Origin: an uncultured Spirochaetota bacterium | GTDB lineage: Bacteria > Spirochaetota > Spirochaetia > SZUA-6 > Fen-1364 | Assembly (NCBI GenBank): GCA_963781885.1 | Contig: CAWAHW010000001.1 | Coordinates: 1-64,000 of the forward strand | Length of the DNA stretch: 64,000 nucleotides | Direction: 5' to 3' | In this document: positions 1-16,989 of the stretch, piece by piece | Position numbering within the stretch: the stretch's first letter is position 1 | Layout of the letters: each line of letters starts with the position of its first letter | Program-made: the position numbers and the translations under genes | Notes under the pieces: model-generated | What the model was told of the DNA's origin: nothing | The model's input: the letters and a program-made list of their open reading frames with translations, nothing else | Database searches by the model: none

Positions 1-755
1 GGAACGGAGATGCTAAACTCGACTTTCTGGGAATCCAGAAAACTCACTGTTTCATCGCTGAAAAACGCTGAATCCTTACGCGACTCCACAATCACACCGG
101 GCAGCTGAGCTCGCACCGCGGCCACGCACGCCCCAATGAAAGCAAGTGAGCCCTTGGAGTCGTGCACGTTGCCTGGCCGATGATGGGCATCCAGGACTTG
201 ACCGCTTTGCGCCACGGTGCAGAACAACGGGTAGTAGCTTCTGGCCCCCTTCTTTTTATCATTATACCCGATGGCCGTCCCCTCGGCGTAACGGCCGCTG
301 GAGATCACCGAGCCATCGAAGTCCAAGGTGACCCGTGCCAGCCCCTGATGTTCAAGACGTTGCAGGACCAAAGCACGATTGAACTCTTGAAGGTTGGCAA
401 CGCTGTGCGCATCAGCCCGACAGAGCATCCGACTCACCGTACAGACATGAGGCAGCCGCCGCAATCCCAGTGCTCGTCGAATCAGCGGGTCCTCTCGGTA
501 GCGATCAATATCACGCAGCCGACGGTAGCCCAGCATCAAGTGCAGGATCATCAACAAGGCGACGCTGTGAAACCCTACCACGGAACCCTTCTTCCGATGG
601 GTGAAGCATCGCTGTAGTTTGCCCGCGACATCCATGTTTTTGAAAAGGGCTTGTAGTACCACGGTCCCAGAAAAAGATGTCAATCGTTGATCTTCGAAGC
701 GAAGCTCGGGGAACTTGTAGACGCGGGAGTGGATTTGTGCTCTACTGGGTTTCAC
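1..755 (-). CDS. IS1380-family DDE transposase, N-terminal part (not in the ORF track because there is no stop codon in the window)
   Basis: Manual translation from GTG at 755 after an AGGAGG RBS: VKPSRAQIHSRVYKFPELRFEDQRLTSFSG...LMLGYRRLRDIDRYREDPLI...VTLDFDGSV...GYNDKKKGARSYYPLFC...HRPGNVHDS...RKDSAFFS. These are IS1380-type motifs. Confidence 0.85.
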   Translation of the reverse strand, partial: MKPSRAQIHSRVYKFPELRFEDQRLTSFSGTVVLQALFKNMDVAGKLQRCFTHRKKGSVVGFHSVALLMILHLMLGYRRLRDIDRYREDPLIRRALGLRRLPHVCTVSRMLCRADAHSVANLQEFNRALVLQRLEHQGLARVTLDFDGSVISSGRYAEGTAIGYNDKKKGARSYYPLFCTVAQSGQVLDAHHRPGNVHDSKGSLAFIGACVAAVRAQLPGVIVESRKDSAFFSDETVSFLDSQKVEFSISV

Positions 756-885
756 GTTTGGTGGCCTCCTGGTCGGTAGATCTGACTCTTGGCGGAATCA
801 GGATTTGCCATATCAGGACGCCACTTTTTCATCTACACGTCAAGCGAATATCTGCCTTTTATGCATCTGTAAGGTATAGATAAGG
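1..885 (-). mobile_element. IS1380-family insertion sequence, partial (runs off the left edge)
   Basis: Carries the transposase below. A probable terminal IR reads CCTTATCTATACC on the minus strand from 885; IS1380-family ends typically start with CC. The adjacent MBL-fold gene is truncated at this point. Confidence 0.8.
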
Positions 886-1464
886 ATAGAATTAGAGACT
901 CATTGGAAATGCAACTTGGCCAGGCCGGCTGCGTTCCCGGCAACCTCTCGCTTGTGATTCTGACGGGCGGAGGTGCCGATTACGCCGGCAACTGCGCATT
1001 TCTCCAGCACAAGTACCGCGCGAATGTCGCCATGCATTGCGCGGACTTAGGTGCAATTCAGGGACCCTTACTTCCTAGCTCTCAAGGAAAAGGGCTCTTG
1101 GGCAAGATGATGATGAAGGCCCTGGAACCTCGCCTTCGGCAAATGTATGAGATCTTCGAAAGGTTCACACCGGATCTGTATCTGCAAGAAGGATCAAGTC
1201 TTCAGAAGTATGGGTTGGACGCCAAGATCGTCCACGTACCGGGGCACTCTCCCGGCGGCATCTCAATTATGACGTCCGAAGGAGTATCTCTTCTGCGGAG
1301 ACCTGATTGGGAACCCTAACGGCAGGCCGCGGTTCACGGCGATTGTCGACAACGCATCCGACATGAAGTCCAGCAAGAGGAAACTTGAATCTTTGATGAT
1401 TTCGACCATTTATCCTGGCTACGGTGCTTCATTTCCATATAAAAAACTGAGACAAGTATCCTGA
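886..1464 (+). pseudogene. Metallo-beta-lactamase-fold hydrolase, 5'-truncated and frameshifted (cassette 1)
   Basis: ORF 903-1319 has VILTGGGADYAGN and HVPGHSPGGIS. A second frame continues as LFCGDLIGN...TIYPGYG to TGA at 1464. The N-terminus is cut by IS1380. Confidence 0.7.
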
Positions 1465-1524
1465 GGTGAATTGACGCCGGATTGAACGTTCATGTCGAGA
1501 CACAACTTCTTGAAAGAAGCCGCC

Positions 1525-1641
1525 GCCTAGCAAATCGTTGGAGCACTCCGGACCAGAATTTGCTCCAATAGACCCGCTTCCGGTGCCGATCTTTGTGGTT
1601 TTTTGTTTGATGCGGGCCGGGTGCTCAACTCTATGTGGGCG
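1525..1641 (+). repeat. attC site 1 (degenerate cores)
   Basis: R'' GCCTAGC, 5-nt spacer, L'' GTTGGAGC ... L' GCTCAAC, TCTAT, R' GT-GGGC (one T missing). Confidence 0.85.
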
Positions 1642-1674
1642 GCGGTATATGCCTACGCCAAACCTTGTTAATGG

Positions 1675-1703
1675 TTGACGAAATTTGCGAAACAGCTTAT
1701 GCT
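1675..1703 (+). promoter_or_regulatory. Putative sigma70 promoter inside cassette 2
   Basis: TTGACG-17 bp-TATGCT upstream of an AAGGAGG RBS and ATG 1785. Confidence 0.5.
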
Positions 1704-1784
1704 GGCAATTAGCATAGCGGAGCAAGGCTTAAGATTTCAGGTTTTTGAATCATAAAGCTTATAGATAATTGAAGGAGGTCGTCT

Positions 1785-2639
1785 ATGATTTCTAGTAGCA
1801 AAGTTCTATTCTGTTCACTCTTGGCAGCTTCGCTTATTGCAGGACTTGGATATGCTCAAGACCTAGGAACCTTAACTAGCACAAAGGGAAAAACTCTCGC
1901 TGTCCAAGGACTTAAAGTCAATATCAAGTCTATTGAAGAATATCAAGGCGCCTGGCTTGATACGATTTACCTTACGCCAAACGCCGTGCCTATTCGATTA
2001 TATAGTGGAGTGATTCAATTCATAAACATAGCCAAGATTGTGGAATACCATGCAAACGCGACCTCTGCGAGCATAAGCTTAGATAGTGGGGGACAGGTTT
2101 CGGGAGCCCCTTTTGTTGGCTGTACGCTACTAATTAGTACAGTCCTTGGAGATATTAGCGTTTTAGCCGAGAATGTGGCCTCACTAAAGCTATCAACAGA
2201 CAATATCAAAATTAAGTACAAAGATATGAAAGCAACCCCGGGAGCGATGGAATGGCCTGATTCCTACAAAGCAAGAGCTACTTTTTCCTTCGTTGCCGGC
2301 GATAGCATTGAGGTTAGCAATCTCGCTGTGGTGTATATAGAATCCGGGCTAGATAATATGTGGATACCTGCCAAGCCCTACAGCACCTGGAAACTTATGC
2401 AGAATCTTCCAATAACGTTCAGTGACTTCGATACCGAACTCTCTTTTGATAAAGTGCAATACATCATATTAAAGAAATCCAGTTCTAATATTCAAGATCT
2501 TGTAATCTTTCTTAGGTCTGGCGAAAGAATTGATGCCAACATAAAAGAGAGTGCTAGTGTTCTAGCATTCCTAGGCACCACAGAAAGCGGATTCGTACAT
2601 ATGCCACTAGATAAGATTGCAAGGATAGATTTTAAATAG
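1785..2639 (+). CDS. Exported hypothetical protein (cassette 2)
   Basis: 284 aa, strong RBS, signal peptide ending GLGYA-Q, beta-strand-rich; no family recognised. Confidence 0.8.
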   Translation: MISSSKVLFCSLLAASLIAGLGYAQDLGTLTSTKGKTLAVQGLKVNIKSIEEYQGAWLDTIYLTPNAVPIRLYSGVIQFINIAKIVEYHANATSASISLDSGGQVSGAPFVGCTLLISTVLGDISVLAENVASLKLSTDNIKIKYKDMKATPGAMEWPDSYKARATFSFVAGDSIEVSNLAVVYIESGLDNMWIPAKPYSTWKLMQNLPITFSDFDTELSFDKVQYIILKKSSSNIQDLVIFLRSGERIDANIKESASVLAFLGTTESGFVHMPLDKIARIDFK

Positions 2640-2767
2640 GAACGTCCTATGTCATCATTGGTGAAATTCTGATCGTCAAAGTGTCATTGCACCCTCAGCT
2701 CTCAAGTTTTCTTGAAAAGCAAGGATCAGTGAGAAACGAAGGACGTAAGGAAAGTCAAAACGACGCC

Positions 2768-2882
2768 GCCCAACAAGTCGTTGGAGCACTCCAGGCAGAA
2801 TTTGGTCGAATACAGCCACTTTCGGTGCAAATCGGGGTGGTGCTGTCCTGATGCGGGCCGGGTGCTCAACTCTATGTTATAA
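2768..2882 (+). repeat. attC site 2 (best preserved)
   Basis: R'' GCCCAAC-AAGTC-L'' GTTGGAGC-ACTCC...CCGGGT-L' GCTCAAC-TCTAT-R' GTTATAA. L'' has one extra base relative to L'. Confidence 0.92.
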
Positions 2883-3057
2883 CTCCTCAGAACAAATGAA
2901 GCAGGCTTGATGGAAAGACACAGGAAAGGGCTACCACATCCTTGTTTGAACTCATACTCTTCAGTCCTTGTGCGAGGGCCGCGAAGCCTGTATTATATGT
3001 GCAACACTGAGGAGAAGATGGGCTTGACTTGGAGACCGGTCAAATGAAACTGTTCAT

Positions 3058-3594
3058 ATGAAGCATTATGGCTACTGCCCGTATGCGGAGCTCCATTTGA
3101 TCTGCCGAACAGGTAGGGTCAGATTATAAAATTGCATTCGTGCTCTCGTGCGGATACGAGTTTTGGCAGAATTCCAAGCCAGCTGTCTCCGCTCTCATCG
3201 AAAAAACGGACAAAGAAGGCTCTCATCCACTTCTTGCGCGCCGTGCGATTGAGCCACACAAAGGGATGTGGGGCATTCCTGGAGGGTACCTGGACAATGG
3301 AGAGCGCCCCGAGGATGGGCTTCGACGCGAGATTCAAGAAGAACTAGGCATAGCTCTTGAATACGCAGAACTCTTTTGTGTGAGATCGGCGAATATCCTC
3401 GAGAAGACGTTGCAAAGGAAGCCCGCTTTCTACTCGCTTTGTATTATCGCTGCGAAATTCCTTCCGACGCCATGCCTATCGCTGCTGATGATGTTGCAGA
3501 AGCTGCATGGTTTTCTTTGAAATCTCTTCCCATCGATATTGCATTTGCCTCAAATCGCAGGGCACTCGGTGCTTTGGCGGTTGCAGTTACGTAG
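3058..3594 (+). pseudogene. NUDIX hydrolase with N-terminal zinc ribbon, multiply frameshifted (cassette 3)
   Basis: MKHYGYCP..CG..CGYEFWQNSKPAVSALI and Nudix box GGYLDNGERPEDGLRREIQEELG. The C-terminus DDVAEAAWF...IAFASNRRAL is in another frame. Confidence 0.8.
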
Positions 3595-3775
3595 CGAAAT
3601 TGACACGGCGTTCGAATGAGCCGAGAGGCATAATACACAGGAAAAAATAGCTATTGGAGTTAAGTCTGCAAGTGATCGCTCGCTTTTCCAAAGTCTCGCG
3701 CCCGCCATCCTTGGCCTGGGTTATCTGTCAATGGATCAAGCTATCAAGGGAATGAGGGGGAGGGGATCGGAGTAG

Positions 3776-3890
3776 TCATAACAAATCCTCAGACCAGTCG
3801 CCTTAGAATTTTTCTAGGCAAACCCAACCTTGCCCTAGTCGTCGCGTGGTGCGAGTTGATGCGACGGCGCTGGGCACCTCTATGTTATAC
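3776..3890 (+). repeat. attC site 3 (divergent interior)
   Basis: R'' TCATAAC...AGAATTT...TGATGCG...CTCTAT-R' GTTATAC; same 115 bp length as site 2. Confidence 0.8.
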
Positions 3891-4001
3891 CCACGAGACT
3901 TTTTACCAGCGTCCATGGTAACATCCAGTGCCTTCTATTGGTAAGATCCGTTTGATACGGGGAGGCTTGAGTCTCACAGCAGATAAAGGAAAAAATACCG
4001 A

Positions 4002-4934
4002 ATGGCAATAGGCGAGAACAAGATACATTTTGACCTACAAAGGCGCGTCGTCTCCCATATGACGTCCTCGTCGTGGAGAACAATACCGCATGTGTCGTTC
4101 ATATACGAGCCAGATGTGACCGAGTTTATGAAAGTATATGCAAGAATAAACGATGATGCCGCCGAGAGAGAATACAAACTAACCTTGAATACGGTAATAC
4201 TGAAAATCATCTCGGAAGGACTGAAGAAAGCTCCTTCTCTAAACGCCTTCGTTGACTACGATCCGCAAAAGGGCGAGGGCAGCGTGATACTTAAAAAAGA
4301 CATTAACATAGCAATTCCTTGGCTGCTGCCGGATGGAAGAATGATCACACCGACCATACTTGATTGTGGAAACAAGTCATTTCGCCAAATTTCTAACGAT
4401 ATTGCAGAAATCAAAAGGAAGCTTTCGAATACGGACGTAAATGAGCTTCTTTTCAGCGCCATAAGAAATGATACTCTTAACGAAATTCGGAAATTCAATA
4501 TCGGCATTATTCGGAGAATAGTCGCAGCCAGAATTACCAAACGCCCGGTCAAAGGTTTGCGCGGAGGTGAGAAGAAACGCTACTACAATATTCCCAGTAG
4601 AGATAGGCTTACCAAAGACGATTTGCTGCTCGCTACAGTCTCGGTCTCCAACATCGGCTCACTGTACAAAGGCCTTCGCGGCTATTTCGGCATGCTGCAG
4701 ATTATCCCGCCTCAGGTATTCGCATTAGGGATAAACGCGCTGCAAGAGAGACCTGCAGCATATTTGAATTCGAGTGGTGCGCAGGAAGTAGGTGTTCGGA
4801 AATTCCTCCCACTTACTCTTGTATTCGATCATAGAGCCGTTGATTTTTCTGCTTTGATACCATTTATAAAGGAATGCGACGCGTTATTTGAAAATCCTGA
4901 GAGACTGAAGAGCCTGACCTGGCCGAAAGCATAA
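4002..4934 (+). CDS. 2-oxoacid dehydrogenase E2-type acyltransferase catalytic domain, stand-alone (cassette 4)
   Basis: IPHVSFIYEPDVT, SVSNIGS and LTLVFDHRAVDF; no lipoyl or subunit-binding domain. Confidence 0.8.
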   Translation: MAIGENKIHFDLQRRVVSHMTSSSWRTIPHVSFIYEPDVTEFMKVYARINDDAAEREYKLTLNTVILKIISEGLKKAPSLNAFVDYDPQKGEGSVILKKDINIAIPWLLPDGRMITPTILDCGNKSFRQISNDIAEIKRKLSNTDVNELLFSAIRNDTLNEIRKFNIGIIRRIVAARITKRPVKGLRGGEKKRYYNIPSRDRLTKDDLLLATVSVSNIGSLYKGLRGYFGMLQIIPPQVFALGINALQERPAAYLNSSGAQEVGVRKFLPLTLVFDHRAVDFSALIPFIKECDALFENPERLKSLTWPKA

Positions 4935-4999
4935 GCATTGAACTACTACTGCGTGATAGCCTACGTCCTGAAAGCATTGTTTGGCGAGAAGTGTCAGGG

Positions 5000-5102
5000 G
5001 TATGACAAATCTTTAAGGTGCTCCGGCGTGATTTTGCAGGAAAGACGCAGTCTTGGAGCAAATCGAAGTGCTGCGGGCCGGTTATTGGGCTCTATGTTAT
5101 GT
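5000..5102 (+). repeat. attC site 4 (degenerate, shortened)
   Basis: R'' GTATGAC-AAATC...CTCCGG...GCAAATCG...TGCGGGCCGG...CTCTAT-R' GTTATGT. Confidence 0.8.
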
Positions 5103-5192
5103 TCTATCAAGATTTCAGTAGCTGTCCGAAAGCCTCAAGCTTAAGAATGCCTCATTTCGCATTGTGAACGTTAAGGGCCCTTAAATGCGCAC

Positions 5193-5221
5193 TTGACATT
5201 AGCAGTTCAGCAATGAATATT
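5193..5221 (+). promoter_or_regulatory. Putative sigma70 promoter inside cassette 5
   Basis: TTGACA-17 bp-AATATT, ending 23 bp before GTG 5245. Confidence 0.4.
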
Positions 5222-5456
5222 GTAGCGGGACGGGACAATATCGCGTGAAAAAGGCATTCGCAACCATACTATTCATTCTCGCAACATTCAGCTGTTTTGC
5301 GGCTGACTTTAGAAATGCGTCATGGCAGATGACCCGGGATCAGGTGATTGCTTCCGAGCAAGGAGGAGTTGCCTCTGAAACAAGCTTCTCTGGCAAAAGC
5401 AGATCGTCTACAAGACATATGAATACCGACTTCCAGGCAACATCACCTATACTCTA

Positions 5457-6601
5457 GTGTCATGTAAACGACAGCTTTTTTAATTCTGACCTGCTTTCCG
5501 TACTCGGCGAAGGATTTGCTCAGCGCTTTTGGCCCACACGAAATGTTTGCCGGATTTGTTCCAATGATGAATGTAGTCCATGATCGCACGCTCGAGTTCT
5601 TTTACATTGTTCCAACTCCCGCGTCGGATGCGTTTGGTGGTGATTTCTGAAAACCAACGCTCTACGAGATTGAGCCACGAGCTATGCGTGGGAGTGAAGT
5701 GTACGACGAACCGCCCGGGGCGTGCTTCCAGGAAGTCACGCACTCTTTTGGTGTCATGGCTTGAGGCGTTATCCACAATCAGGTGCAACACCTTCTTCTT
5801 GGAAGTTCTACGGTCTACCAGGTCGAGAAACTCGATGTATTCTTTCTGTCGGTGCCGATCAGCAAATGCCCCAATCACCCTGCCTGAGACAACGTTTAGT
5901 GCCGCGTATAGGTTAGTTACCCCGTGGCGAATGTAGTCATTGCGTTTGACGTTCGGGAATGCCCTGGCGTAGGGGAAGGATCGGTTTAGCGCGTTCCAGC
6001 GCCTGAACCTGCGACTTTTCATCAATGCTGAGCACCAATGCGTTCTGCGGGGGGTTGAGGTATAGCCCCACAATTTCCTCCAGCTTCTCCTCAAAAGCCG
6101 GATCGTTGCTGCCACGGAAATGCTTTACCAGATGAGGTTTCAGGTCGTGAGCCTGAAGAATCTGATGCACTTTTGTGTGGCTGATGCCAACCTGCTTTGC
6201 GATTTCTCGTGTCGACCAGTGAGTGGCGTCTTTGGGCCGTTGGGTCTGCACCACCTTCAGGACTCGGTTAATCACCTTCTGATCAAGAGGAGCTTTTCCC
6301 GGTTTATGGTTTGGCTGCTTCAGTAGTCCATCCAGGCCGCGTTCGTTGAACCTACGAACGATCACGCTGACAGATACGGGATGTATGCGAAGAACCTCAG
6401 CGATGTCACTGGTGCGTTTGCCGTCCGCTCTGCCCAAGATGACTTGAAGTCGGGTGGCCTGTTTATGGTTCAGCGCCTCTCCCGTTAACATCTGCTCCAT
6501 CATGTCCCGTTCCGTTGCATTTAATTGCGGAAGTATCTCGATACGCATACGCATAGAATACCAAAAGAACTGCGATATCGCAACTCTTTTTTACAGGACA
6601 C
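5457..6601 (-). mobile_element. IS630-family insertion sequence, complete ends
   Basis: Terminal IRs GTGTCATGTAAA and TTTACAGGACAC, with TA duplicated at 5455-5456 and 6602-6603 in a CTAG target. Confidence 0.92.
5480..6554 (-). pseudogene. IS630 transposase split by a 1-nt insertion near 5940
   Basis: HTH region, SIDEKSQVQAL, DYIRHG, LIVDNASSH and FTPTHSSWLNLVERWF. The expected THDY reads CAATGAC instead of CATGAC. Confidence 0.85.
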
Positions 6602-6945
6602 TAGAAGAAGATAGGCTGCTCTCGGCAAGCTACAGATTTAGGAATGATCAAGACATGCAGCTCTTCAACCAATTTAATCAGGAACTATTGAAGCAGTATG
6701 GAAAGCCATCTTTTCAGACCGAGAAGCTGGTTGTATGGCGACTGGCAAAGACAGAGATCGCTTTGACTCATCTTCCGGACAATACCTGCTATGTCGCCTA
6801 TTGGGAGAAGGCCTATTTTGCGAAAATAAATCAATTAGCTAAGTCTGGACAATAGCAGATGGAATTGGATCTATTCATTTTAAAAGGATAGTGAAACATT
6901 AAGGAATAAAATGAATGAGTCCAAGAAATAGATTACAAATCATTT

Positions 6946-7715
6946 TAAGGACATAGGTAACACCCATTCGAAGGACATGGATAACATCTTCTCCACTAAG
7001 GAGGATGCCAACCATGCCGCGGGAGGGTGTTACGGTGAGTGAGCAACGTCATTAGTTCATCAGGGACTATATAGATGGCTACTATAGAAGGACCAAGTCA
7101 GCCAAGCGTTTCGATACGTTTCGAAAGACCGCCTACAAGTGGGTCAATCGTTTCACGGCAGATGGTTCGAAAGGTCTAGAAGAGCTCAGCCGACGGCCGC
7201 ATAGTTGCCCTTGGCAAATGGATGCGAGGATTGTGGCAGAGATCATCGCAATGAGAAGAGCGCACCGAGCTTCGGACCGAAGACCCTGCTGAAAAAGCAG
7301 CGAAACGCCACCGCTACCTCGAATTGCCAGCTGTGGTCGCACGCCTTTTTGGACCGACAGAGTCTGATAGCTGAGCCCCGAAGGTACCGTCGAGCCCATC
7401 CTGGATGCCCGAAGAACGTGGCTGCTTCTCCCAACGACACTTGGGCAGTTGAATACAAGGCACAGTTTCGGCTGAAAAGCGGCCAGTGCTGCCTCCCGCC
7501 AACTGTGAGCGATCTGTATTTTCGCTTCCTGTTGGGCTGCGAGGCATCGTGGCAGTTGGGGGGAGCCCACGGGTACAGAAAAGGTGCATAAAATGGGCAA
7601 TAGTGCGCCTCATGGAAACTGCGGGGTGTACTGCATCGAACTGATAACGGAGTGCCCTTTGCCTTCTCCGCCTTGGCTCGGCTTTCCGCTCTTCGTCTAT
7701 GGGTTCAGTTCGTTC
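6946..7715 (+). mobile_element. IS481-family element remnant (left end plus decayed transposase)
   Basis: Tandem GGACAT..TAACA end motifs at 6946-6986, RBS, ATG 7014. Reads MPREGVTVSEQR*...RKTAYKWVNRF...LSRRPHSCP...PNDTW...TDNGVPFA with a stop and frameshifts; the 3' part is missing. Confidence 0.8.
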
Positions 7716-7863
7716 AAAGTGAAAGCGGCGGGGAGCGGAGAAGGAACCGAAGAATACATTCACAAAAGGAGGGATTTTCTACAGTCGACTATGCCGAAAA
7801 GCGAACAAAATTGTGCCGATTTCTCGATTTCGGAAGGACGTTCCTCGGATTTATGCTGGCACC

Positions 7864-8910
7864 ATGGTGAAAAGTGGAGGGCTTGGGTGGCAATTGGCAT
7901 CCACTAACAAGCTGCTGACCCTCGGTTTCTTGACGGTTCTGCTCCTAATCTTCTCTGTTTCCGCGAACAACTTCTTCACCGTCAGGGGCGTCCTCAATCT
8001 CCTCGTACAAACAAGTACATTCACTATCATTGGCATCGGCTCCACCTTGGTGTTGATCATCGGTGGCGTCGATTTCTCCCTGGGAGCCTTGGTCGCGCTC
8101 GGCGGGGCAGGCGTGATAGTATCCGTGTCAATGGGCGCGCCCATCTGGTTGTCGATGATCGTCGGCGTCGGCCTGGGCGGACTCATTGGCTGCGTGAACG
8201 GATTCCTGGTCACGCGGCTTCGGTTACCGTCGTTTCTTGCCACGATGAGCATGGCGATGATTGTCTACGGGATGCTGAATTTCCTGGCATTCGTCGCTTT
8301 CAATTCCCCTCCTCCGCCACACCCTATACCTGAGAGCCTCGGGGACCTGGCCAATAGGCCGGTTTTCAGGATCTATTCCCATAATGCCGCCGGCACGCGT
8401 ACAGTCGTCTTCCCTGGAATTTCCTGGATCGTCATCATTATGGTGTTCGTTGCTGTGCTTCTACATTTCGTTTCGACGAAAACCAGGATCGGACGGTATT
8501 TCCATATAGTCGGCTCGAACCAAGAGGCTGCCCGGTTTTCGGGAATAATGGTCAACCGAGTCAAGCGGTTCGCATACGTGCTCGCGGGCATGCTGGCATC
8601 ACTTTCCGGTGTCCTGCTCACATCCCGGCTGGGGTTCCCACCCGGCGGGGCGACTGGCTATGAAATGATCGGGATCACGTGCGCCATGATCGGGGGAGCG
8701 AGCCTTTCCGGAGGGGCAGGAAGCATCGGGGGAACTGTGATCGGATCCTTCATCATATGCACCCTCGCCACGGGGCTGTCGATGATGAACACGAGCAATC
8801 CCGCCCTTCCGTTTCTTTTCAATGGCCCTGTCGTCATCGTGGCAGTGTGCCTAGACCAGATACGGAGTGGAGGATTGCGTCGACATCCGGAGTCCGGTCC
8901 GCACGATTGA
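7864..8910 (+). CDS. RbsC-type sugar ABC transporter permease, orphan (inside the array)
   Basis: IIGGVDFSLG, LPSFLATM, GSNQEAARFSGI and IGGASLSGGAGSIGGTVIG. Confidence 0.88.
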   Translation: MVKSGGLGWQLASTNKLLTLGFLTVLLLIFSVSANNFFTVRGVLNLLVQTSTFTIIGIGSTLVLIIGGVDFSLGALVALGGAGVIVSVSMGAPIWLSMIVGVGLGGLIGCVNGFLVTRLRLPSFLATMSMAMIVYGMLNFLAFVAFNSPPPPHPIPESLGDLANRPVFRIYSHNAAGTRTVVFPGISWIVIIMVFVAVLLHFVSTKTRIGRYFHIVGSNQEAARFSGIMVNRVKRFAYVLAGMLASLSGVLLTSRLGFPPGGATGYEMIGITCAMIGGASLSGGAGSIGGTVIGSFIICTLATGLSMMNTSNPALPFLFNGPVVIVAVCLDQIRSGGLRRHPESGPHD

Positions 8911-8978
8911 AGTTTAGAAACGGCCCTTTGTCGTCGGGCACATCATATCCCTTTGACGACGACTTTTTGCGCGGACCG

Positions 8979-9085
8979 ATGCATCGTAGAGTTCAGTACT
9001 CCAGGCGGAATCTTCTTGGATAGACCAGAGCAGATCGGTGTGCTTTCGTTCTGATTCGGGCCGGGTACTCACCTCTCTGTTTGCC
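8979..9085 (+). repeat. attC site 5 (degenerate)
   Basis: GTTCAGTACTCCAGGCGGAAT...TTCTGATTCGGGCCGGGTACTCACCTCTCT-R' GTTTGCC; R'' eroded to ATGCATC. Confidence 0.75.
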
Positions 9086-9210
9086 AGCGTCCGTAGTGGC
9101 AGACCGATACTGATGATTACATTTTCAAGCAAATAGGGTGTATTTCTTTCACGGCGGATTGCAGAAAGCGTTGCGATGGTGCATTATATCGGCACGGAGT
9201 ATGTTCGCCT

Positions 9211-9771
9211 ATGAGACAAGGAGTCGTGCTCGCGCTAGAAGCGGGTCTAGAGAACCATATCCGCAAGGTATGGAAATCATTCGAGGAAGCGGGTATTGGC
9301 ATTACTCCGGGACAGCTTCTTGAACCACCTCACATCACTATCGCTGAGGCGGCATCTACAGCTATCGAGCCCTTTTGGCAAGCAGCAATTGAAACGCCTT
9401 TCACAGATCAGCGTCTGCAACTGCTGCCTTTCGGCGTCTTTCTTGCCAAAAAAAACGTCCTTTTCTATAATGTGACTCTATCTGAAGGATTGCATCGCTC
9501 ATATCTGGCATTCTACGATCTTCTTCGCAATAAAAAGGCCGCGTACAAGCCTTTGTATGATCCGAGCCACTTGCTTTTCCATTGCACAGTTGCCATCGAT
9601 ATCGAAGAGAGTGAACTATCCCATGCTATAGAGCTTATGTCCAAGGAACGGGCTACTTTGTCCGGCATTGCAACAGCCATCGAATTGTGGGAACATCATC
9701 CTGCAAGGCGGAAGAATACCAAGCTGCTACAGCCGACACCTGGAGCTCAGGACCCGGGCATTTTAGAATGA
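9211..9771 (+). CDS. 2H phosphoesterase / 2'-5' RNA ligase family protein (cassette)
   Basis: Two HxT motifs: PPHITIA and LFHCTVA. Confidence 0.8.
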   Translation: MRQGVVLALEAGLENHIRKVWKSFEEAGIGITPGQLLEPPHITIAEAASTAIEPFWQAAIETPFTDQRLQLLPFGVFLAKKNVLFYNVTLSEGLHRSYLAFYDLLRNKKAAYKPLYDPSHLLFHCTVAIDIEESELSHAIELMSKERATLSGIATAIELWEHHPARRKNTKLLQPTPGAQDPGILE

Positions 9772-9851
9772 TCGCTACTGTGCAATAGAGAAAAGGACGT
9801 ATCGGCACTGGGCCATTTTAAGAAAGGATTTCTGTTCGTTCAAGGTTCGCT

Positions 9852-9966
9852 GGCTAATAGGTCGTTGCAGCACTCCGGGCAAAATTTCTTCAAATAGACC
9901 CAGTTCCGTGGCAAATCGGGGTGAGGCGTTTCTGATGCGGGCCGAGCGTTGAGCTCCATGTTGGGC
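9852..9966 (+). repeat. attC site 6
   Basis: R'' GGCTAAT-AGGTC-GTTGCAGCACTCCGG...GCAAATCGGGG...TCTGATGCGGGCCG...CTCCAT-R' GTTGGGC. Confidence 0.85.
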
Positions 9967-9994
9967 AATTCTAAAAGGGTGTAGCATAGCAGCC

Positions 9995-10843
9995 ATGACA
10001 GAGGACCAAGCGAGCACAACCGCCCTCAGTGTTTCCGTTATGCGTGCGGTGCATCAGACAATAGATGAACTGCCTCATATTCTGGAGGATTCTGTATCGC
10101 TCAAATTGCTTAAGAAGGGGACCATCCAGCAGATTTTAGCAGAGGCAACAAAGCACCGATCTCCGCAGTTAAAGGCACTGCGGTCGCATATCGTGCTGCG
10201 AAGCAGATACACCGAGGACAGACTACATTCAGCTTTCCTATCTGGAACACGACAGTACGTGAGTCTTGGTGCAGGATATGACACCTTCGCTTGCAGGCAA
10301 CCGGATTGGTCGACGACACTGAAAATAGTAGAAATAGATCATCCAGCAACTCAATCCGCAAAGTTAAGGCACTTTTACGACAGCGACATCCAATTCCCGC
10401 GGAACGCAGAGTTCCTGCCCCTAAATCTGGAAACGGGCGGTTTGAGAGATGGCTTGTCACGATCAACTCTAGATCTCTCGATTCCAATATTCTTCTCCTG
10501 CGTGGGCGTTTTGGCATATCTGCGAACTGAAACGGTAGACAGCATATTCAAGGATATCGCGGCCATGCCAAAAGGAAGCGGTTTTGTTTTTGCCTTCGCG
10601 CCGCTCATTCGAGGGGATATCGCTCCTCTGAGGGGGATAGAATCCACCGCTCAGAGAGCCGCAGCGCACGGAGAACCGTGGCTTACACGATTTGAAGCAG
10701 ATGAATTAGCAAAGAAGCTCATCGAAACTGGTTTCAGCAAAGTATCCTTTCTTCTGCCTGAAGAGGCGACGCTTCAATACTACCAATCAAGGAGCGATTT
10801 GCCAGCACCAAAGGCGATACGCCTTTGCGAAGCACTTGTTTGA
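9995..10843 (+). CDS. LCM/TcmP-type class I SAM-dependent methyltransferase (cassette)
   Basis: IVLRSRYTED, QYVSLGAGYDT, EIDHPATQ and GVLAYL. Confidence 0.88.
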   Translation: MTEDQASTTALSVSVMRAVHQTIDELPHILEDSVSLKLLKKGTIQQILAEATKHRSPQLKALRSHIVLRSRYTEDRLHSAFLSGTRQYVSLGAGYDTFACRQPDWSTTLKIVEIDHPATQSAKLRHFYDSDIQFPRNAEFLPLNLETGGLRDGLSRSTLDLSIPIFFSCVGVLAYLRTETVDSIFKDIAAMPKGSGFVFAFAPLIRGDIAPLRGIESTAQRAAAHGEPWLTRFEADELAKKLIETGFSKVSFLLPEEATLQYYQSRSDLPAPKAIRLCEALV

Positions 10844-10853
10844 AGCGTGAATT

Positions 10854-10967
10854 GCCTGACAAGTCGTTGCAGTACTCCAGTCAGAATTTCTCAAGATAGA
10901 CCCGCCGCAAGTCCAAATCGAGACGGTGCTGTTCTGATGCGGGCGGCTATTTGGCTCCATGTCAGGT
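10854..10967 (+). repeat. attC site 7 (last in the array)
   Basis: R'' GCCTGAC-AAGTC-GTTGCAGTACTCC...CAGAATTT...TTCTGATGCGGGC...CTCCAT-R' GTCAGGT. Confidence 0.85.
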
Positions 10968-11130
10968 TCCTCAGTCGTATCCGATAACATTGTTTACACA
11001 ACCCTAAGCACATCGTTGACTTGAAAGGAGTGCTCGGCGGCGTTTTAAGTGACCAGTAGATTCCATTGATGAATGGGAATAGAGTATCGACTGCCGACAC
11101 AGAGCTGCCGGGGAGTGATGAGGAGGCAAT

Positions 11131-11418
11131 GTGCCAGAATACATTTTTGATGGGAAAAAGCTGAAAAAACGGTCCGGACAAAAAGAGGGAGAGCTGGAGA
11201 AGAACCTCGTCCGTGCGTGGAACGGGGCGCAGTTGGGCGAAATTGAAGGCAAAAACATACGGGACTCTCAAGGCAAGAAAGTCTTGGAGTTTGATGGCAA
11301 GAATATCAAGGATGAAACGGGCAAAAAGATTGCCACGATCGAAGATGTGCGCAAGATAATTGAAGGAGAGTCGGGTATCTCTTTGGTCGCAATGTGGTAC
11401 TTCTTTGTCTGGAAATAG
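11131..11418 (+). CDS. Small beta-hairpin repeat (beta-flower-like) protein
   Basis: GAGGAGG RBS; repeats FDGKKLK, IEGKNIRDSQGKKV and FDGKNIKDETGKKI. Confidence 0.7.
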   Translation: MPEYIFDGKKLKKRSGQKEGELEKNLVRAWNGAQLGEIEGKNIRDSQGKKVLEFDGKNIKDETGKKIATIEDVRKIIEGESGISLVAMWYFFVWK

Positions 11419-11714
11419 TTCGCAGTTGTTCGCCGGATCGAGCTGCCGGTCGGTATCTTCGCGCTCCTGAAGTACCCTGCCCGGATGCAAGTGCCTCGCG
11501 ATTGTGCGAAACGCGAACACCGGTGAAGTCGAAATCTCACGACGCTCTTGCGTCGACGGCGAACGCAAGCGTTGAATATCCGCACAATGGGATCCTTGTG
11601 CGCGCTACGAACATGGACGCTTGAGTCCGCAAACTTTCAAAGAGATGCTTTGATCACGCAGAAAGCTATCGCGGCAGCGCCTTCGAAAAGAGGAGATCAC
11701 CGGCGGAGTCTCCG

Positions 11715-11915
11715 TCACTGCGGCGAGGGCAAAGCCGGACCGCACAAGATTCAAGGAGTCGGGGCGGGGTTCATTCCACCGCTTTTTGAGGCGGCCTCGT
11801 GGCCGGTACGCCGGGCCGTGTCCTCAGCGCCCTCCGTGCCATTCTCGGGTCGAAAGCGACGGTCGTGACTCTGATGGTTGACTCCGGACTCGAGAACGCC
11901 AATATAGACGTGTAC
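11715..11915 (+). pseudogene. Cysteine synthase (CysK-like) C-terminal relic
   Basis: GKAGPHKIQGVGAGFIP, then VVTLMVDSG in another frame. Confidence 0.55.
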
Positions 11916-11970
11916 AAGAGAAGGGGAACCGGCTTCACAGCGCGGGCATTTCTTCGTTCTGCGGGAGAGC

Positions 11971-12533
11971 ATGGTGCAAGGGAAACCTGTCACGATTCAG
12001 CGGTTTCGCAAAAGAGTACGATTCCTGCAGGCCCAAACCACCTTCCATCCTGAAAGAGATACTGCTTGCGCTGGCGCAGGTCGCCGCCTGCGGCTTGTCG
12101 TCGATCTGGGCAGTGGCACAGGGCTCTCGTCTCACACCGGTCTTGCTGACGGATGTGCGGATATCTCTCAACCCTCGCACTGGATGGTACCGGAGCCGAC
12201 CTTCAAGGAAGTGGCGCGACTCCTTCGCCCGAGTGGAGTTTTTGCAGTCTATGACTACGACTGGCCGCCGACGACAGGAGTCCGGATGGCCGACCGCGCA
12301 TATGAAGCATGCATGGGGGGCTTTCCGCCGCACCACGTTGAAAAATGCCCAAAATCAGGCCATTTGGAGCGAATGGTGGAAAGCGGATGCTTCAGATATA
12401 CAAAAGAAATAGTGGTCCACCATACGGAGGAAGAGCTGGAATTGATCGGCTGCGGGCGCTCTGCGGCGAGGTTCTGGGGAAACAACAGAGACGTTGGTAT
12501 TGGAGCTCGCGCGTAAGGATTGGAGTCACGTAG
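11971..12533 (+). pseudogene. Class I SAM methyltransferase relic with internal deletions
   Basis: VVDLGSGTGLS, HWM.PEPTFKEVARLLRPSGVFAVYDYDWPP; spacing between motifs has collapsed. Confidence 0.65.
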
Positions 12534-12565
12534 AGGGACGACTCATGGAATTGAGAGGAGGAAAA

Positions 12566-13573: not shown

Positions 13574-13589
13574 TCGCAGAGGAGCACTT

Positions 13590-13979
13590 ATGTCCATTCG
13601 GGTCGTTCGATTGGGGAGCCCACGGGGAAAAAACGAGGGTCTGCGAATCGGAACCGTTCGCAGACCGCCCCGGGGGGTGCGAAAAGCCGACTATGGCGCA
13701 AGGGACTTTTATGACGTATGGCTTCCCCAGCTCGCTCCGAGCGCGAAGCTGGTACGGCAGGCAAAGACGCAGGCGGACTCTCCGGAGGACTGGAAGCGCT
13801 TCGAAAAGCAATTCACCCGTGAGCTGCTCGTGCCCGACAGCCAAAGGCTCTTGGACCTTCTCGCCGCCCTTTCAAAAGAGACCAACTTTTCAATCGGATG
13901 CTATTGCGAGAATGAAGAGAGGTGCCACAGATCCGTATTGAAGAAGCTGCTTCGCGAGCGGGGCGCTCTGATTCATTGA
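13590..13979 (+). CDS. DUF488-family protein
   Basis: RIGTVRRPPRGVRK, YDVWLPQLAPS and GCYCENEERCHRSVL. Confidence 0.85.
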   Translation: MSIRVVRLGSPRGKNEGLRIGTVRRPPRGVRKADYGARDFYDVWLPQLAPSAKLVRQAKTQADSPEDWKRFEKQFTRELLVPDSQRLLDLLAALSKETNFSIGCYCENEERCHRSVLKKLLRERGALIH

Positions 13980-14576: not shown

Positions 14577-14613
14577 AGCAGGGGGCGCCGCGGGGAGCGG
14601 TACCCCGCGTCAG

Positions 14614-14982: not shown

Positions 14983-15162
14983 ACGACTCACCTCTTCGCG
15001 CCATACTATACGAGCCGGCGCGTGGCGTCCATGACGCGCCTGTCCGTCCGCTCTTGACGCCTCTGGCCGATTTTCCTTACTATGGAAGGAAATACGGACC
15101 GCGCTGGCCGCTCTTCTTCAAGTGACAGGCCCCCTTACCCGTAGAACACGATAAGGATGCAT

Positions 15163-16989
15163 ATGCCGAAGACCGCCGTGAAGTACGACGAAAAAGCAAT
15201 CCAGACGCTGGATGCGCTGGAGCACATCCGCCTGCGGACCGGTATGTATATCGGCAGGCTCGGAGACGGCTCCAACCCCATGGACGGCATCTACATATTG
15301 CTGAAGGAAGTCGTCGACAACAGCGTTGATGAGTTCATCATGGGCGAAGGAAAGGTCATCGAGATCTCCCGCAAGAAGGAGTCCGTCGCCGTCCGCGACT
15401 ATGGCCGCGGCATCCCCCTGGGAAAGGTCATCGATTGCGTGAGCAAGGTGAACACGGGCGGCAAGTTCAACGACGACGTCTTCCAGTTCTCCGTCGGCCT
15501 GAATGGGATCGGGACAAAGGCGGTGAACGCCCTGTCGGCCGATTTCGAGGTGGTGAGCTTTCGGGACGGCAAGTATGTCCAGGGCATTTTCAAGCAAGGC
15601 AAGCTCGTGAGCCAGAAGGACGGCAGGGACCCCAAGGCAAAAACGGGCTGTCTCTTCCGCTTCACGCCGGACCCGAAGATCTTTTCCACGTACGCATGGA
15701 ACGACGACTATGTCTTGAAGCGCCTGCGCTACTACGCGTATCTCAACAGCGGCCTCAAATTCCTGTACAACGGGACGACCGTCGTGAGCCGCGAGGGACT
15801 GCTCGACCTTCTCACGGAGGAGATCGGCGAAGAGTCCATGCACTACGAGATCGCCCACTACAAAGGCGCGCGCCTGGAGTTCGCCTTCACGCATACGGCG
15901 AATTACGGGGAGAATTACTTCAGCTTCGTGAACGGCCAATTCACGATCGACGGGGGCACGCATCAGACCGCTTTCCGCCTGGGGGTGTTGAAGGCGATCG
16001 ACGAGTACGCCGGGGTCAATTTCGCGGCGGAGGACGTGCGGGAGGGCATGATCGGCGCGGTCTCCATCAAGATCAAGGATCCCGTCTTCGAAAGCCAGAC
16101 CAAGCACAAGCTGGGCAACAACGAGATCCGCGGCTGGGTGGCGGACGAGGTGAAGCAGCAGACCCTCACATGGCTCCACAAGAACGAGGCTGAGGCGAAA
16201 AAGCTCATCGAGAAGATCAAGAGCAACGAGCGCATCCGCAAAGAGCTGTCCACCATCAAGAAACAGGCGCGGGAAATGGCGCGCAAGGTGGAGATCCACA
16301 TCCCCAAGCTCACCGACAGCAAGATCCACTACAACGATGAAAAGGACAAGAGACGCGAGGAGACGAGCATCTTCCTCACAGAAGGGGATTCCGCCGGCGG
16401 GCCCATGATCCAGTCCCGGGACGTCTACACGCAGGCCATTTTTTCGCTGCGCGGCAAGCCGCTGAACGTCTACGGGTTGAAACGCAACACGGTCTACAAG
16501 AACGAAGAGCTGTACAACATCATGCGCGCCCTCGGCATCGAGGATGGGCTGGAAGGGTTGCGCTACAACAAGGTCATTATCGCCACGGACGCGGACGTGG
16601 ATGGCATGCACATCCGCAACCTCCTCCTCACCTACTTCCTCCACTACTTCGAAGAGCTCGTCCTGAAGGGCCACGTCTATCTCCTGGAGACCCCGCTCTT
16701 CCGCGCGCGCGACAAGAAGGAAACGGTGTACTGCTACAGCGAACAGGAAAGGGATGAGGCGGTGAAACGCCTGAAAGGCGCCGAGGTCACCCGGTTCAAG
16801 GGCCTCGGGGAGATCAGCCCGAAGGAGTTCAAGCAATTCATGGGCGATGACATGCGGCTCACCGAAGTGCAGATTCAGTCAATGGGCAGCGTGCATAAGA
16901 CACTGGAGTTCCTCATGGGAAAGAACACGCCCGAACGGAAGAAGTTCATCGTGAACAACCTCATCACCGACGTCCTCCAGGGGGCATAG
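15163..16989 (+). CDS. parE: DNA topoisomerase IV subunit B
   Basis: EHIRLRTGMYIG, EVVDNSVDE, GLNGIG, TEGDSA, LRGKPLN, TDADVDG and RFKGLGE. Confidence 0.92.
   Translation: MPKTAVKYDEKAIQTLDALEHIRLRTGMYIGRLGDGSNPMDGIYILLKEVVDNSVDEFIMGEGKVIEISRKKESVAVRDYGRGIPLGKVIDCVSKVNTGGKFNDDVFQFSVGLNGIGTKAVNALSADFEVVSFRDGKYVQGIFKQGKLVSQKDGRDPKAKTGCLFRFTPDPKIFSTYAWNDDYVLKRLRYYAYLNSGLKFLYNGTTVVSREGLLDLLTEEIGEESMHYEIAHYKGARLEFAFTHTANYGENYFSFVNGQFTIDGGTHQTAFRLGVLKAIDEYAGVNFAAEDVREGMIGAVSIKIKDPVFESQTKHKLGNNEIRGWVADEVKQQTLTWLHKNEAEAKKLIEKIKSNERIRKELSTIKKQAREMARKVEIHIPKLTDSKIHYNDEKDKRREETSIFLTEGDSAGGPMIQSRDVYTQAIFSLRGKPLNVYGLKRNTVYKNEELYNIMRALGIEDGLEGLRYNKVIIATDADVDGMHIRNLLLTYFLHYFEELVLKGHVYLLETPLFRARDKKETVYCYSEQERDEAVKRLKGAEVTRFKGLGEISPKEFKQFMGDDMRLTEVQIQSMGSVHKTLEFLMGKNTPERKKFIVNNLITDVLQGA

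Follow-up and report, generated by a model that had tools for sequence, protein, structure and literature searches.

Organization of the cassette region

The first 64,000 nt of contig C1 of an uncultured Spirochaetota bacterium (the window) carry exactly seven related repeats of 103 to 117 nt, all on the + strand and interspersed with genes and insertion sequences (Table 1). The segment bearing them extends from the broken contig end, which falls within an insertion sequence (IS), to position 10,967, a few kb from parE/parC. The IS at the contig start matches four full copies of about 1.53 kb over 875-882 bp (99.7-99.9% identity), two of them on C2 and one each at C5:323.3-324.9 kb and C6:18.5-20.0 kb, the latter two inside arrays, and the assembly breaks at the window start because this multi-copy IS lies there. 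It interrupts cassette 1, whose ORF beside the IS scores under the Pfam cut-off (Lactamase_B, 18.1 versus 22.7 bits); the coding sequence apparently continues in another frame up to 1463, and this second frame (1276-1461) has no Pfam match. Cassette 2 has a GC content of 41.7% and its gene product begins with what looks like a signal peptide. In cassette 3, the Pfam NUDIX match (50 bits) covers profile positions 3-61 only, and the intact homologues found in three relatives (182-249 aa) require two different frames to align with it. Within the 3974-bp interval that precedes site 5 are an IS630-like element on the minus strand, fragments of an IS481-like element and a gene for an ABC-type permease. 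The IS630-like element, single-copy in the genome, appears to divide a short + strand ORF, the parts of which lie at 5245-5457 and about 6600-6855. The IS481-like fragments share 80-81% DNA identity with C6:59341-60116 and C4:791246-791792, the intact C4 copy encoding a 375-aa protein; region 7205-7588 has no Pfam match. The cassette 6 gene may encode a 2H-phosphoesterase or LigT-like protein. The earlier note on this DNA had described one + strand gene before each repeat, which holds for sites 2, 4, 6 and 7, but not for site 3 (a frameshifted gene), site 1 (a weak, sub-cut-off metallo-beta-lactamase-like fragment near an IS) or site 5; its view that the cargo genes are functionally unrelated is confirmed by the Pfam assignments.

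Beyond site 7, the gene at 11131..11418 is a possible fossil cassette gene lacking an attC: no attC remnant was found after it in the window, and its DNA homologue in a relative (G023; 71% identical) is a 101-aa ORF between two attC sites. GC content is 56.7% over 8001-9000, the permease gene region, and climbs to 58-63% in the parE/parC flank, the start of which (window about 15,050-16,000) finds a best match in 23 of the 24 other genomes of the family.

Table 1. Features of the window, with the repeats listed under their preferred reading as attC sites
Feature	Position	Strand	Description
Truncated insertion sequence	1..878	-	At contig start; transposase ORF 3-755 runs off contig; Pfam DDE_Tnp_1_4, 104.2 bits
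Cassette 1 remnant	886..1524	+	ORF 903-1319, weak metallo-beta-lactamase-fold similarity
attC site 1	1525..1641	+	Model 101.1 bits; L-box pairs 13/13 intact
Cassette 2 gene	1785..2639	+	284 aa, no known family; no Pfam match
attC site 2	2768..2882	+	Model 114.9 bits; sole fully canonical window site
Cassette 3 gene	3140..3594	+	NUDIX hydrolase pseudogene, frameshift near 3382
attC site 3	3776..3890	+	Model 75 bits; 'GACCAG/CGCC' subtype; triplets canonical; L pairs 10/13
Cassette 4 gene	4002..4934	+	310-aa acyltransferase, 2-oxoacid dehydrogenase catalytic-type domain; Pfam 2-oxoacid_dh 127.9 bits
attC site 4	5000..5102	+	Model 49.8 bits; most decayed of window sites
IS630-like insertion sequence	5460..6600	-	Overlapping transposase ORFs 5480-6115, 5937-6554; Pfam DDE_3 73.2 bits, HTH_23/HTH_32
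Fragmented IS481-like (rve integrase) element	6912..7692	+	Family assigned by eye
Orphan ABC-type permease gene	7813..8910	+	365 aa, directly upstream of site 5; Pfam BPD_transp_2 135.8 bits
attC site 5	8974..9085	+	Model 55 bits (model match bounds 8979-9085)
Cassette 6 gene	9211..9771	+	186 aa; Pfam 2_5_RNA_ligase2 24.3 bits, under cut-off of 27
attC site 6	9852..9966	+	Model 83.9 bits; R'' ..AAT; L' altered
Cassette 7 gene	9995..10843	+	282-aa SAM-dependent methyltransferase, LCM family; Pfam LCM 121.9 bits
attC site 7	10854..10967	+	Model 81.2 bits; last recognisable site
Fossil cassette gene candidate	11131..11418	+	95-aa 'beta-flower' protein; Pfam Bflower_2 28 bits, below cut-off
parE/parC-like genes, core chromosomal flank	15157..18930	+	Topoisomerase IV or gyrase-type B and A subunits; Pfam DNA_gyraseB, Toprim, DNA_topoisoIV

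Genome-wide distribution of the repeats and the integrase

Run with filters off at E<=10 over the entire 64-kb window, a family covariance model (R1, the source alignment of which included the window sites) recovered the seven repeats at 49.8-114.9 bits (E 1e-11 to 2e-30), each at the position given in the earlier note and on the top strand; one further match (12.9 bits) falls at site 2 in the reverse orientation. Taken by itself, the 12-nt core motif is not above chance in the window when two mismatches are tolerated (18 matches versus 15 expected), while all six matches with 0-1 mismatches fall inside the repeats, and the repeat consensus proposed previously stands. With an HMM made from the seven sites of the window, 106 copies were found in the genome (65 on C6, 18 on C5, 15 on C4, 7 on C1 and one on C7), and the structure-aware covariance model found 107, of which 104 make up four one-directional arrays sitting at contig ends, the other 4.5 Mb being free of copies except for three weak strays. 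Median spacing is 935 bp, 73 of the 84 intervals measuring 150-2000 bp have their longest ORF in the attC direction, and the arrays have a foreign composition (GC 49-54% versus 61-64% for the contigs).

A full-length integron integrase gene (intI; TIGR02249, 400.8-403 bits versus a cut-off of 265) is encoded at C6:69065-70441, divergent from the 65-site array. Residues 144-451 of the protein align with the V. cholerae integron integrase (PDB 2A3V) and are preceded by an extension of about 135 aa without a Pfam family; its nearest relatives in a one-genome-per-species collection are 45-54% identical and come from many phyla. About 110 bp upstream of intI lies a candidate attI half-site, GTTAAGCGGCTCC, in which 12 of 13 bases match the R'' extension of the first attC. 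An integrase and a candidate attI, which the earlier note had proposed to look for upstream of the window, were thus found on C6 rather than on the window contig, where no integrase is present in the window or nearby and weak tyrosine-recombinase matches alone occur at 424-430 kb. One lineage-specific attC family fills this sedentary chromosomal integron system, which comprises at least 104 full sites over about 128 kb.

Structure of the attC sites and cassette boundaries

The family consensus, ..TAAC-AAATC-GTTGgAGCAC...GTGCTCAAC-TCTAT-GTTAGG. (median length 115 nt), follows the textbook attC order: R'' (..TAAC) is separated by 5 nt from L'', which carries an extra base; a variable region then leads to L', and another 5 nt lie between L' and R' (GTTAGG.). 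Within the window, site 2 displays both the full layout and the single unpaired L'' base noted earlier: its R'' is GCCCAAC and its R' GTTATAA, each set off from its L box by 5 nt, with R pairs 4/4, L pairs 13/13 and both AAC and GTT kept. Site 1 has both core triplets mutated (R'' ..AGC, R' GTG); its bottom strand forms an R/L hairpin in the DNA fold (-16.2 kcal/mol). Site 4 is a 103-nt copy with an internal deletion, 5/13 L pairs and R'' ..GAC; site 5 has a degenerate R'' without AAC, a 4-nt insertion in L'' and R' GTTTGCC, its R'' extension mismatching the R' of site 4; and in site 7 R'' ..GAC and R' GTC are still mutually paired, with 7/13 L pairs. Sites 4, 6 and 7 form no R/L hairpin at minimum free energy, in site 6 on neither strand.

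Over the bottom strands of 104 sites, pairing reaches 97.7% in the L helix, where 7 of 11 pairs have compensatory changes in both partners, and 96.1% in the inner R box. The three outermost R positions pair in just 51.8%, as would be predicted for bases that are part of the neighbouring cassette. Overall, 90.3% of cells are paired versus 77.7% after shuffling (the observed value was reached by 0 of 500) and 26.5-39.5% with partners slid, a control in which the structure is favoured as it was written by hand from DNA folds of sites 1 and 2; RNAalifold alone recovered the inner 7-8 L-helix pairs and no more. The GTT-bearing arm of the bottom strand carries unpaired A (104/104) and C (100/104) 6 bp apart, the positions and spacing being those of the attC description in PMC5027507. 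When the 9 bases that follow GTT were compared with the reverse complement of the 9 that precede the next AAC in 98 pairs of neighbouring sites, 7.79 of 9 positions agreed on average (52 pairs perfect), versus 3.56 for the same site's own R' and 3.61 for random pairs, and this boundary signature fits five of the six window site pairs. We therefore consider the seven window repeats very probably to be attC recombination sites of an integron gene-cassette array; the attC architecture and chromosomal integron proposed in the earlier note are borne out by the clustering of the 106-107 sites, the intI beside the C6 array, the boundary signature and the stem covariation.

Decay and origin of the window segment

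Both AAC and GTT are kept in two of the seven window sites versus 96 of 97 elsewhere, all 13 L pairs likewise in two of seven versus 93 of 97, and sites 3 to 7 rank within the 12 lowest of the 107 model scores. The damage extends to the cargo, with one cassette gene frameshifted (NUDIX), one cassette cut by an IS and another with an IS inside. Given these lost triplets and L pairs together with the frameshift and IS hits, most window cassettes are probably no longer mobilisable, which agrees with the old, decayed distal segment that had been suggested. Along the C6 array there is no decay gradient relative to intI, and the site at the C5 end reaches 122.8 bits, which makes the decay specific to the window segment. 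The region can with high confidence be read as the decaying terminal cassette stretch of a spirochaete chromosomal integron of more than 100 cassettes. Each unit would comprise a promoterless gene followed by an attC about 115 nt long, whose bottom strand would fold into a hairpin of R box, unpaired spacer and L box for the integron integrase to recombine between the G and TT of GTT. The C6 integrase would perform this single-strand recombination and the decayed sites would have lost activity, the window being the terminal segment of a system whose intI and candidate attI sit on another contig, in a contig order that we infer.

It is also quite possible, if short of probable, that the window segment is a separate integrase-less attC cluster (CALIN) that IS-mediated rearrangement detached from the main integron, a process that has been described (PMC4889954), in which case its cassettes would be genuine yet transcriptionally, and perhaps recombinationally, uncoupled, which could account for their decay. 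Arrays begin at two places in the assembly, next to intI/attI on C6 and at an IS66/IS481-bordered point at C4:792 kb, and end at two others, C5:300 kb and window 10,967, making at least one rearrangement likely; insertion sequences at the window contig start and within arrays, inverted sites at C4:796 kb and C5:332 kb, and the confinement of decay to this segment point the same way. The contig-start IS is a five-copy element whose missing half is on no other contig end, nor does any assembled site carry the R' that cassette 1 calls for, so that linkage of the window to the intI array is putative. Like the CALIN of Cury et al. (2016, PMC4889954), the window contig carries its seven attC sites beside an IS with no intI nearby, and taken alone the segment matches both the operational definition given there and the proposed IS-mediated origin. 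However, C6 could equally continue into C1, the two readings differing in physical linkage alone, and unlike for CALIN the genome encodes a cognate intI accompanied by sites of this attC family, the missing link being an assembly gap. The window segment may simply belong to a complete integron as its distal part.

Distribution among relatives

FlaA (PF04620) has three matches in this genome versus none in 14 control genomes, supporting the spirochaete host that was predicted from the window. The attC family is present in 14 of 20 congeners and in all four genomes from other genera of the same family, in just 2 of 16 genomes from the order's other families, and hardly occurs at 80 intI loci sampled from other lineages, consistent with the lineage-specific family claimed before. 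The repeats are intergenic, palindromic and numerous, but that they are REP- or MITE-like elements or repeated transcription terminators unrelated to integrons is extremely improbable and effectively refuted, since they cluster in directional arrays, one abutting a bona fide intI, since the boundary signature, asymmetric unpaired bases and R/L layout are specific to attC, and since the cassette region is missing from the syntenic parE flank in 23 relatives, which carry the family in their own arrays instead.

Comparison with other integrons

Integrons have already been published for Spirochaetes (PMC4889954, PMC8352920) and the present array, though genuine, is a rather ordinary case of a well-known system. 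Like the Vibrio cholerae superintegron with its VCR attC, it is a large chromosomal array of more than 100 cassettes in which the attC sites are long, homogeneous and specific to the lineage, intI is divergent from the cassettes, some cassettes are duplicated and insertion sequences are present, and the spirochaete integrase aligns end to end with VchIntIA. Unlike V. cholerae, the host is a high-GC spirochaete with a fragmented assembly, cassette GC is about 13 points under that of the genome, and the integrase has its N-terminal extension. Chromosomal cassette arrays are likewise reported within the phylum for Treponema denticola and other Treponema, whose attC sites are given as mostly 63-68 nt (PMC3607928) versus about 115 nt here, and the divergent intI differs from the reverse orientation reported as typical of Spirochaetota (bioRxiv 10.1101/2022.02.06.479319). 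The usual attC has T and G unpaired on the bottom strand (PMC5027507), in contrast to the A and C found here, which are shared with attCdfrA1 and its A-N6-C variants; an engineered A-N6-C version of the dfrA1 attC was excised well by IntI2*179E and SonIntIA (Larouche and Roy, 2011, PMC3053210). Natural attCdfrA1 is described there with a spacing of 7-8 nt and in mobile class 2 and class 1 contexts, whereas A-N6-C is here the fixed state of a whole chromosomal family.

Seven attC sites and four array segments

Judged from its sequence, the repeat-bearing part of the window appears to work like the cassette array of a sedentary chromosomal integron, each testable trait of such an array having been found. 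The seven related intergenic repeats proposed in the earlier note were all recovered by a repeat finder and MAFFT alignment, and a covariance model run over the entire window with filters off returned the same sites 1-7, the sole further match at E<=10 (12.9 bits) lying antisense to site 2. The evidence for the repeats is the full-length sites and not the short core motif, which on its own matched 18 times at two mismatches against 15 expected (not significant). No window sequence matched Rfam at gathering thresholds, a negative of no weight for or against attC, as Rfam is not known to hold an attC family.

The assembly, of which the window forms the initial 64 kb of C1, comprises 4.64 Mb in seven contigs (C1 to C7) with contig GC of 61-64%, and 16,000 bases of it (C4:144001-160000) were read as N in genome-wide searches. 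An HMM built from the seven window sites only found 106 copies genome-wide, and a structure-aware model built from 104 copies gave 107 matches, all in four array segments bar three weak strays. The repeat is therefore not scattered over the genome in the manner of a REP or MITE, the behaviour against which the earlier note had set its proposal, and both this reading and that of a transcription terminator were rejected. Together the arrays hold at least 104 full sites and cover 128,444 bp (2.77% of the assembly). Their GC is 49-54% compared with 61-64% for the genome, a drop of ~13 points which suggests that the cassette pool is either common to this genome and lower-GC backgrounds or arises in the latter.

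Coordinates of attC sites, array segments, integrase genes and associated features (C1 coordinates are those of the window)
Feature	Location	Strand	Remarks
attC site 1 (R'' to R')	C1:1525-1641		cassette 1: MBL-fold fragment (Pfam, weak, sub-threshold)
attC site 2	C1:2768-2882		cassette 2: 284-aa protein, no Pfam family
attC site 3	C1:3776-3890		cassette 3: NUDIX gene (Pfam), frameshifted near 3382; intact homologues in three relatives
attC site 4	C1:5000-5102		cassette 4: 2-oxoacid_dh-type acyltransferase (Pfam)
attC site 5	C1:8974-9085		preceding interval: IS630-like element (minus), IS481-like fragments, orphan BPD_transp_2 permease
attC site 6	C1:9852-9966		cassette 6: 2H-phosphoesterase-like (weak Pfam match)
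attC site 7	C1:10854-10967		cassette 7: LCM-family methyltransferase (Pfam)
Window array segment	C1:886-10967		7 HMM copies
C6 array segment	C6:1-68240	minus	65 HMM copies, 0.5-68.3 kb
C5 array segment	C5:300473-334167		18 HMM copies, 300-333 kb, up to contig end
C4 array segment	C4:792373-808799		15 HMM copies on C4: one weak at 722 kb, the rest at 792-808 kb up to contig end
C7 copy			1 HMM copy, partial
Isolated weak attC-like matches	within C4:722188-723579 and C7:290537-290650		three matches, 31.5-45.3 bits
Single attC sites opposite to their array	C4:796078-796193; C5:332478-332937
~485-bp cassette	C6:1-495, 23925, 30521, 35096; C5:311960, 320877; C4:798297, 802318		at least 8 copies, 95.9-100% identity
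IS481-like (rve) element	C1:6912-7692; C6:59341-60116; C4:791246-791792
Beta-flower protein ORF	C1:11131-11418
ORFs between last attC and core genes	C1:11131-14000		same strand, intermediate GC of 54-56%
parE/parC-like genes	C1:15.2-18.9 kb
C6 intI (protein P0001, locus L001)	C6:69065-70441	+	TIGR02249 400.8-403 bits (cut-off 265), profile positions 5-315
N-terminal extension of C6 IntI	C6:69065-69470 (L001:1081-1485)		~135 aa, P0001 residues 1-140
Second integron-integrase-like gene	C5:114874-116196 (locus L002:1408-2730)	minus	440 aa, TIGR02249 315.8-316.9 bits

Structure of the attC family

The consensus of 106 sites (..TAAC-AAATC-GTTGgAGCAC ... GTGCTCAAC-TCTAT-GTTAGG.; median length 115 nt) contains R'' and R' boxes of the form RYYYAAC / GTTRRRY with the AAC and GTT triplets, together with an L''/L' stem and unpaired spacers of ~5 nt (bottom strand: ATAGA and GATTT). 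Under DNA folding parameters, sites 1 and 2 each give a bottom-strand hairpin in which an unpaired spacer separates the R stem from an L stem that carries bulged bases. The attC-type hairpin predicted for the window sites was accordingly borne out for these two, only in part for sites 3 and 5, and not for sites 4, 6 and 7. Unaided, RNAalifold finds inner pairs only (7 on the seven window sites and 8 on the 104 sites), and the canonical R/L structure was therefore written by hand and imposed on 104 bottom strands aligned without structure, two stray sites being left out. Overall, 90.3% of cells are paired compared with 77.7% in shuffles (0/500 reaching the observed value) and 26.5-39.5% in partner-slid controls. 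Pairing reaches 97.7% in the L helix of 11 pairs, 7 of which show changes on both sides, and 96.1% in the inner R box (TAAC/GTTA), but just 51.8% at the three outermost R positions, as expected where the next cassette supplies the outer half of R'. The aligned sites visibly include three sequence subtypes.

As is characteristic of attC sites, two columns of the bottom strand, on the arm that carries GTT, are unpaired, namely an A in 104/104 sites (column 99, position 23 from the R'' end) and a C in 100/104 (column 106, position 16), with six paired columns between them. Unpaired bases at the same positions are described in a section of PMC5027507, which gives T and G as the usual bases, and according to a part of PMC3053210 attCdfrA1 has A and C, and IntI2*179E and SonIntIA both excise A-N6-C variants efficiently. 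Since the usual G/T identities lie on the top strand here, a reversed strand polarity was considered, but it was ruled out by the unpaired bases being opposite the AAC arm on the bottom strand only and by the half-site beside intI, which fixes the orientation. By the definition of attC, an integron integrase would be predicted to recombine these sites in folded, single-stranded form.

Cassette boundaries and gene orientation

Cassettes insert at G|TT, which places the far half of R' at the 5' end of the cassette, directly after the preceding site; while the cassette is circular, R'' and R' are paired over their whole length. This footprint of a circular intermediate is present in the arrays: among 98 adjacent site pairs, the nine bases after GTT agree with the reverse complement of the nine before the next AAC at a mean of 7.79/9, and perfectly in 52, compared with 3.56/9 for the same site's own R' and 3.61/9 for random pairs, a comparison that cannot tell which box is the crossover point; the polarity of the crossover is set by the half-site beside intI. 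Within the window, five of the six pairs fit (1-2, 2-3, 3-4, 5-6 and 6-7) and pair 4-5 fails. Of 84 intervals of 150-2000 bp genome-wide, 73 have their longest ORF co-oriented with the attC, and all window cassette ORFs are on the + strand.

Integrase and candidate attI

The earlier note had proposed looking for an integrase gene upstream of the window. Contig C1 starts inside an insertion sequence and carries no integron integrase above the cut-off; intI was found instead on C6, beside the 65-site array and divergent from it. Its product, a tyrosine recombinase, has the additional domain specific to IntI and aligns with the V. cholerae integron integrase (PDB 2A3V) over residues 144-451 including the IntI-specific region. 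With residues numbered by hand on this alignment, K209, Y210, W219, P232 and H241 of VchIntIA are kept, Q145 is replaced by K and W157 by R (as in IntI1), and H240 by F (residue roles follow the relevant part of PMC3053210). The sequence GTTAAGCGGCTCC, located ~110 bp upstream of intI on the array strand, agrees at 12 of 13 bases with the reverse complement of the R'' extension of the first attC and has no attC body before it. It looks as an attI junction should and, judged from this half-site alone, is a candidate attI.

The N-terminal extension of the C6 integrase has no Pfam match. Similar extensions occur in IntI homologues of Nitrospirota, Chloroflexota, Desulfobacteraceae and others as well as in many relatives, tblastn matches starting at residues 13-27. 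The second integrase-like protein, on C5, is 49% identical to C6 IntI and also N-terminally extended, and its gene has no attC of this family within ~185 kb. GC dips to 55.7% on its upstream side (C5:116-118 kb), a region that could hold cassettes with a different attC; a generic regex scan of C5:100-132 kb, which recovers just 5 of the 65 known C6 sites, returned no attC-like sites.

Decay of the window segment and its possible linkage to intI

Both core triplets are canonical in 2/7 window sites compared with 96/97 elsewhere, and all 13 L pairs form in 2/7 (sites 1 and 2) compared with 93/97. Sites 3-7 are within the 12 lowest of the 107 model matches; as a caveat, the model alignment had included the window sites. 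One genome thereby contrasts near-perfect sites with a decaying terminal segment, a useful comparison that bears on the loss or fixation of distal cassettes. Decay is particular to the window segment, since the C6 array has no score gradient with distance from intI and the site at the other array end (C5:300,473) scores 122.8 bits.

No attC remnant was detectable after position 10,967, a permissive nhmmer search (E<=100) of 10,968-15,200 giving one 2-bit match, and candidate R'' partners of the sequence after site 7 numbered 62 against 57.7 expected by chance. The next ORF, encoding a beta-flower protein, has a homologue in a relative (G023) between two attC sites and co-oriented with them, and the array may once have extended beyond 10,967. 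Among the ORFs that separate the last attC from the core genes, one of 359 aa has weak prenyltransferase/cyclase-like similarity, and in another relative (G015) the array contig carries a homologue with 71% DNA identity to it. The parE/parC-like genes follow the array end, and in 23 of the 24 other genomes of the host family the best match is to the start of this flank. Nothing syntenic with the cassette region was found in these genomes; the same genes in the same order without repeats, an arrangement that the earlier note had named as counting against its proposal, were not seen.

We consider it possible, though on balance rather doubtful, that the window captures integron cassettes becoming ordinary chromosomal genes, a terminal segment having been cut from the integrase platform by insertion sequences and its attC sites now decaying. 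The sites may then lose their AAC/GTT triplets and L-box pairing with the boundary complementarity still legible, and the beta-flower gene, which in a sister genus is a genuine cassette, would stand here without an attC beyond the last site. If true, the window would provide a natural decay series on how sedentary integrons lose or fix cassettes and, together with the fixed A-N6-C and the divergent N-terminally extended IntI, would indicate a distinct family-wide spirochaete integron lineage.

The window segment continues either the C6 array or the C4 cluster, in the latter case as a CALIN-like fragment (a cluster of attC sites lacking an integron integrase). Two array starts are present in the assembly, one at intI on C6 and the other, bordered by IS66/IS481, at C4:792 kb, as are two array ends. 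Searches of the assembly found no match to the expected 5' partner of cassette 1 (R' plus extension) and no sequence joining the intI platform to the window cassettes, and the other half of the insertion sequence at window 1-878 is on no contig end. This element (DDE_Tnp_1_4), within which C1 starts, also occurs as four full copies at other places in the genome, two of which lie within arrays, and the contigs break at multi-copy insertion sequences and duplicated cassettes. With seven attC sites and no intI nearby, the segment falls under the operational label of CALIN (at least two attC sites), a label that depends on the assembly.

Lineage distribution and relation to known integrons

The spirochaete origin proposed for the host is supported by three matches to FlaA (PF04620) compared with none in 14 control genomes; to our knowledge this family is restricted to spirochaetes. 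Matches to the attC model were found in at least 14 of 20 congeners, in all 4 genomes from three further genera of the host family and in at least 2 of 16 genomes from other families of the order, these counts being lower bounds as no more than 91 candidates per genome were scored and many genomes are incomplete. IntI homologues of 50-81% identity are encoded by 20 of the 24 host-family genomes, and conservation of the chromosomal position of intI, beside an mtnA-like gene, was observed in one of seven relatives with short flanks. Beyond close kin, the nearest IntI relatives in a one-genome-per-species collection show 45-54% identity and belong to many different phyla. In 80 loci that carry intI in other lineages, amounting to 930,781 bases, only six attC-model matches (22.8-30.6 bits) were obtained.

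A large array, homogeneous attC sites and lineage-wide presence are the marks of a sedentary chromosomal integron, and the organisation is closest to that of the Vibrio VCR arrays. Particular to this case are the fixed A-N6-C, the divergent N-terminally extended intI, the array size and the decaying terminal segment. According to a passage of PMC3607928, Treponema was in 2013 the only spirochaete clade known to have integrons, and later surveys, in the parts concerned, list Spirochaetes among integron-bearing phyla (PMC4889954; PMC8352920), and the kind is therefore known; this genome or its relatives may be among those that these surveys used. The intI gene is forward-oriented here, in contrast to the mostly reverse orientation given for the phylum in the section on intI orientation of a preprint (bioRxiv 10.1101/2022.02.06.479319). 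Our analysis does not overturn the current understanding of integrons, but adds a very large chromosomal integron in a high-GC spirochaete family with an attC family common to that family, and offers specialists an entire attC family with A and C unpaired at the canonical 6-bp spacing.

Further features of the arrays

The three isolated weak attC-like matches lie far from the arrays and could be secondary-site insertions or old remnants, and the attC sites facing opposite to their arrays on C4 and C5 point to local inversions. The ~485-bp cassette recurs in three array segments, and C4 ends in 634 bp that are a duplicate of C6:15119-15752 with 99.8% identity; such duplicated cassettes account for the assembly breaks. 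The IS481-like element, found within arrays or at their edge, is also multi-copy on the array contig of the relative G015 (G015:C6), and may prefer arrays as insertion sites.
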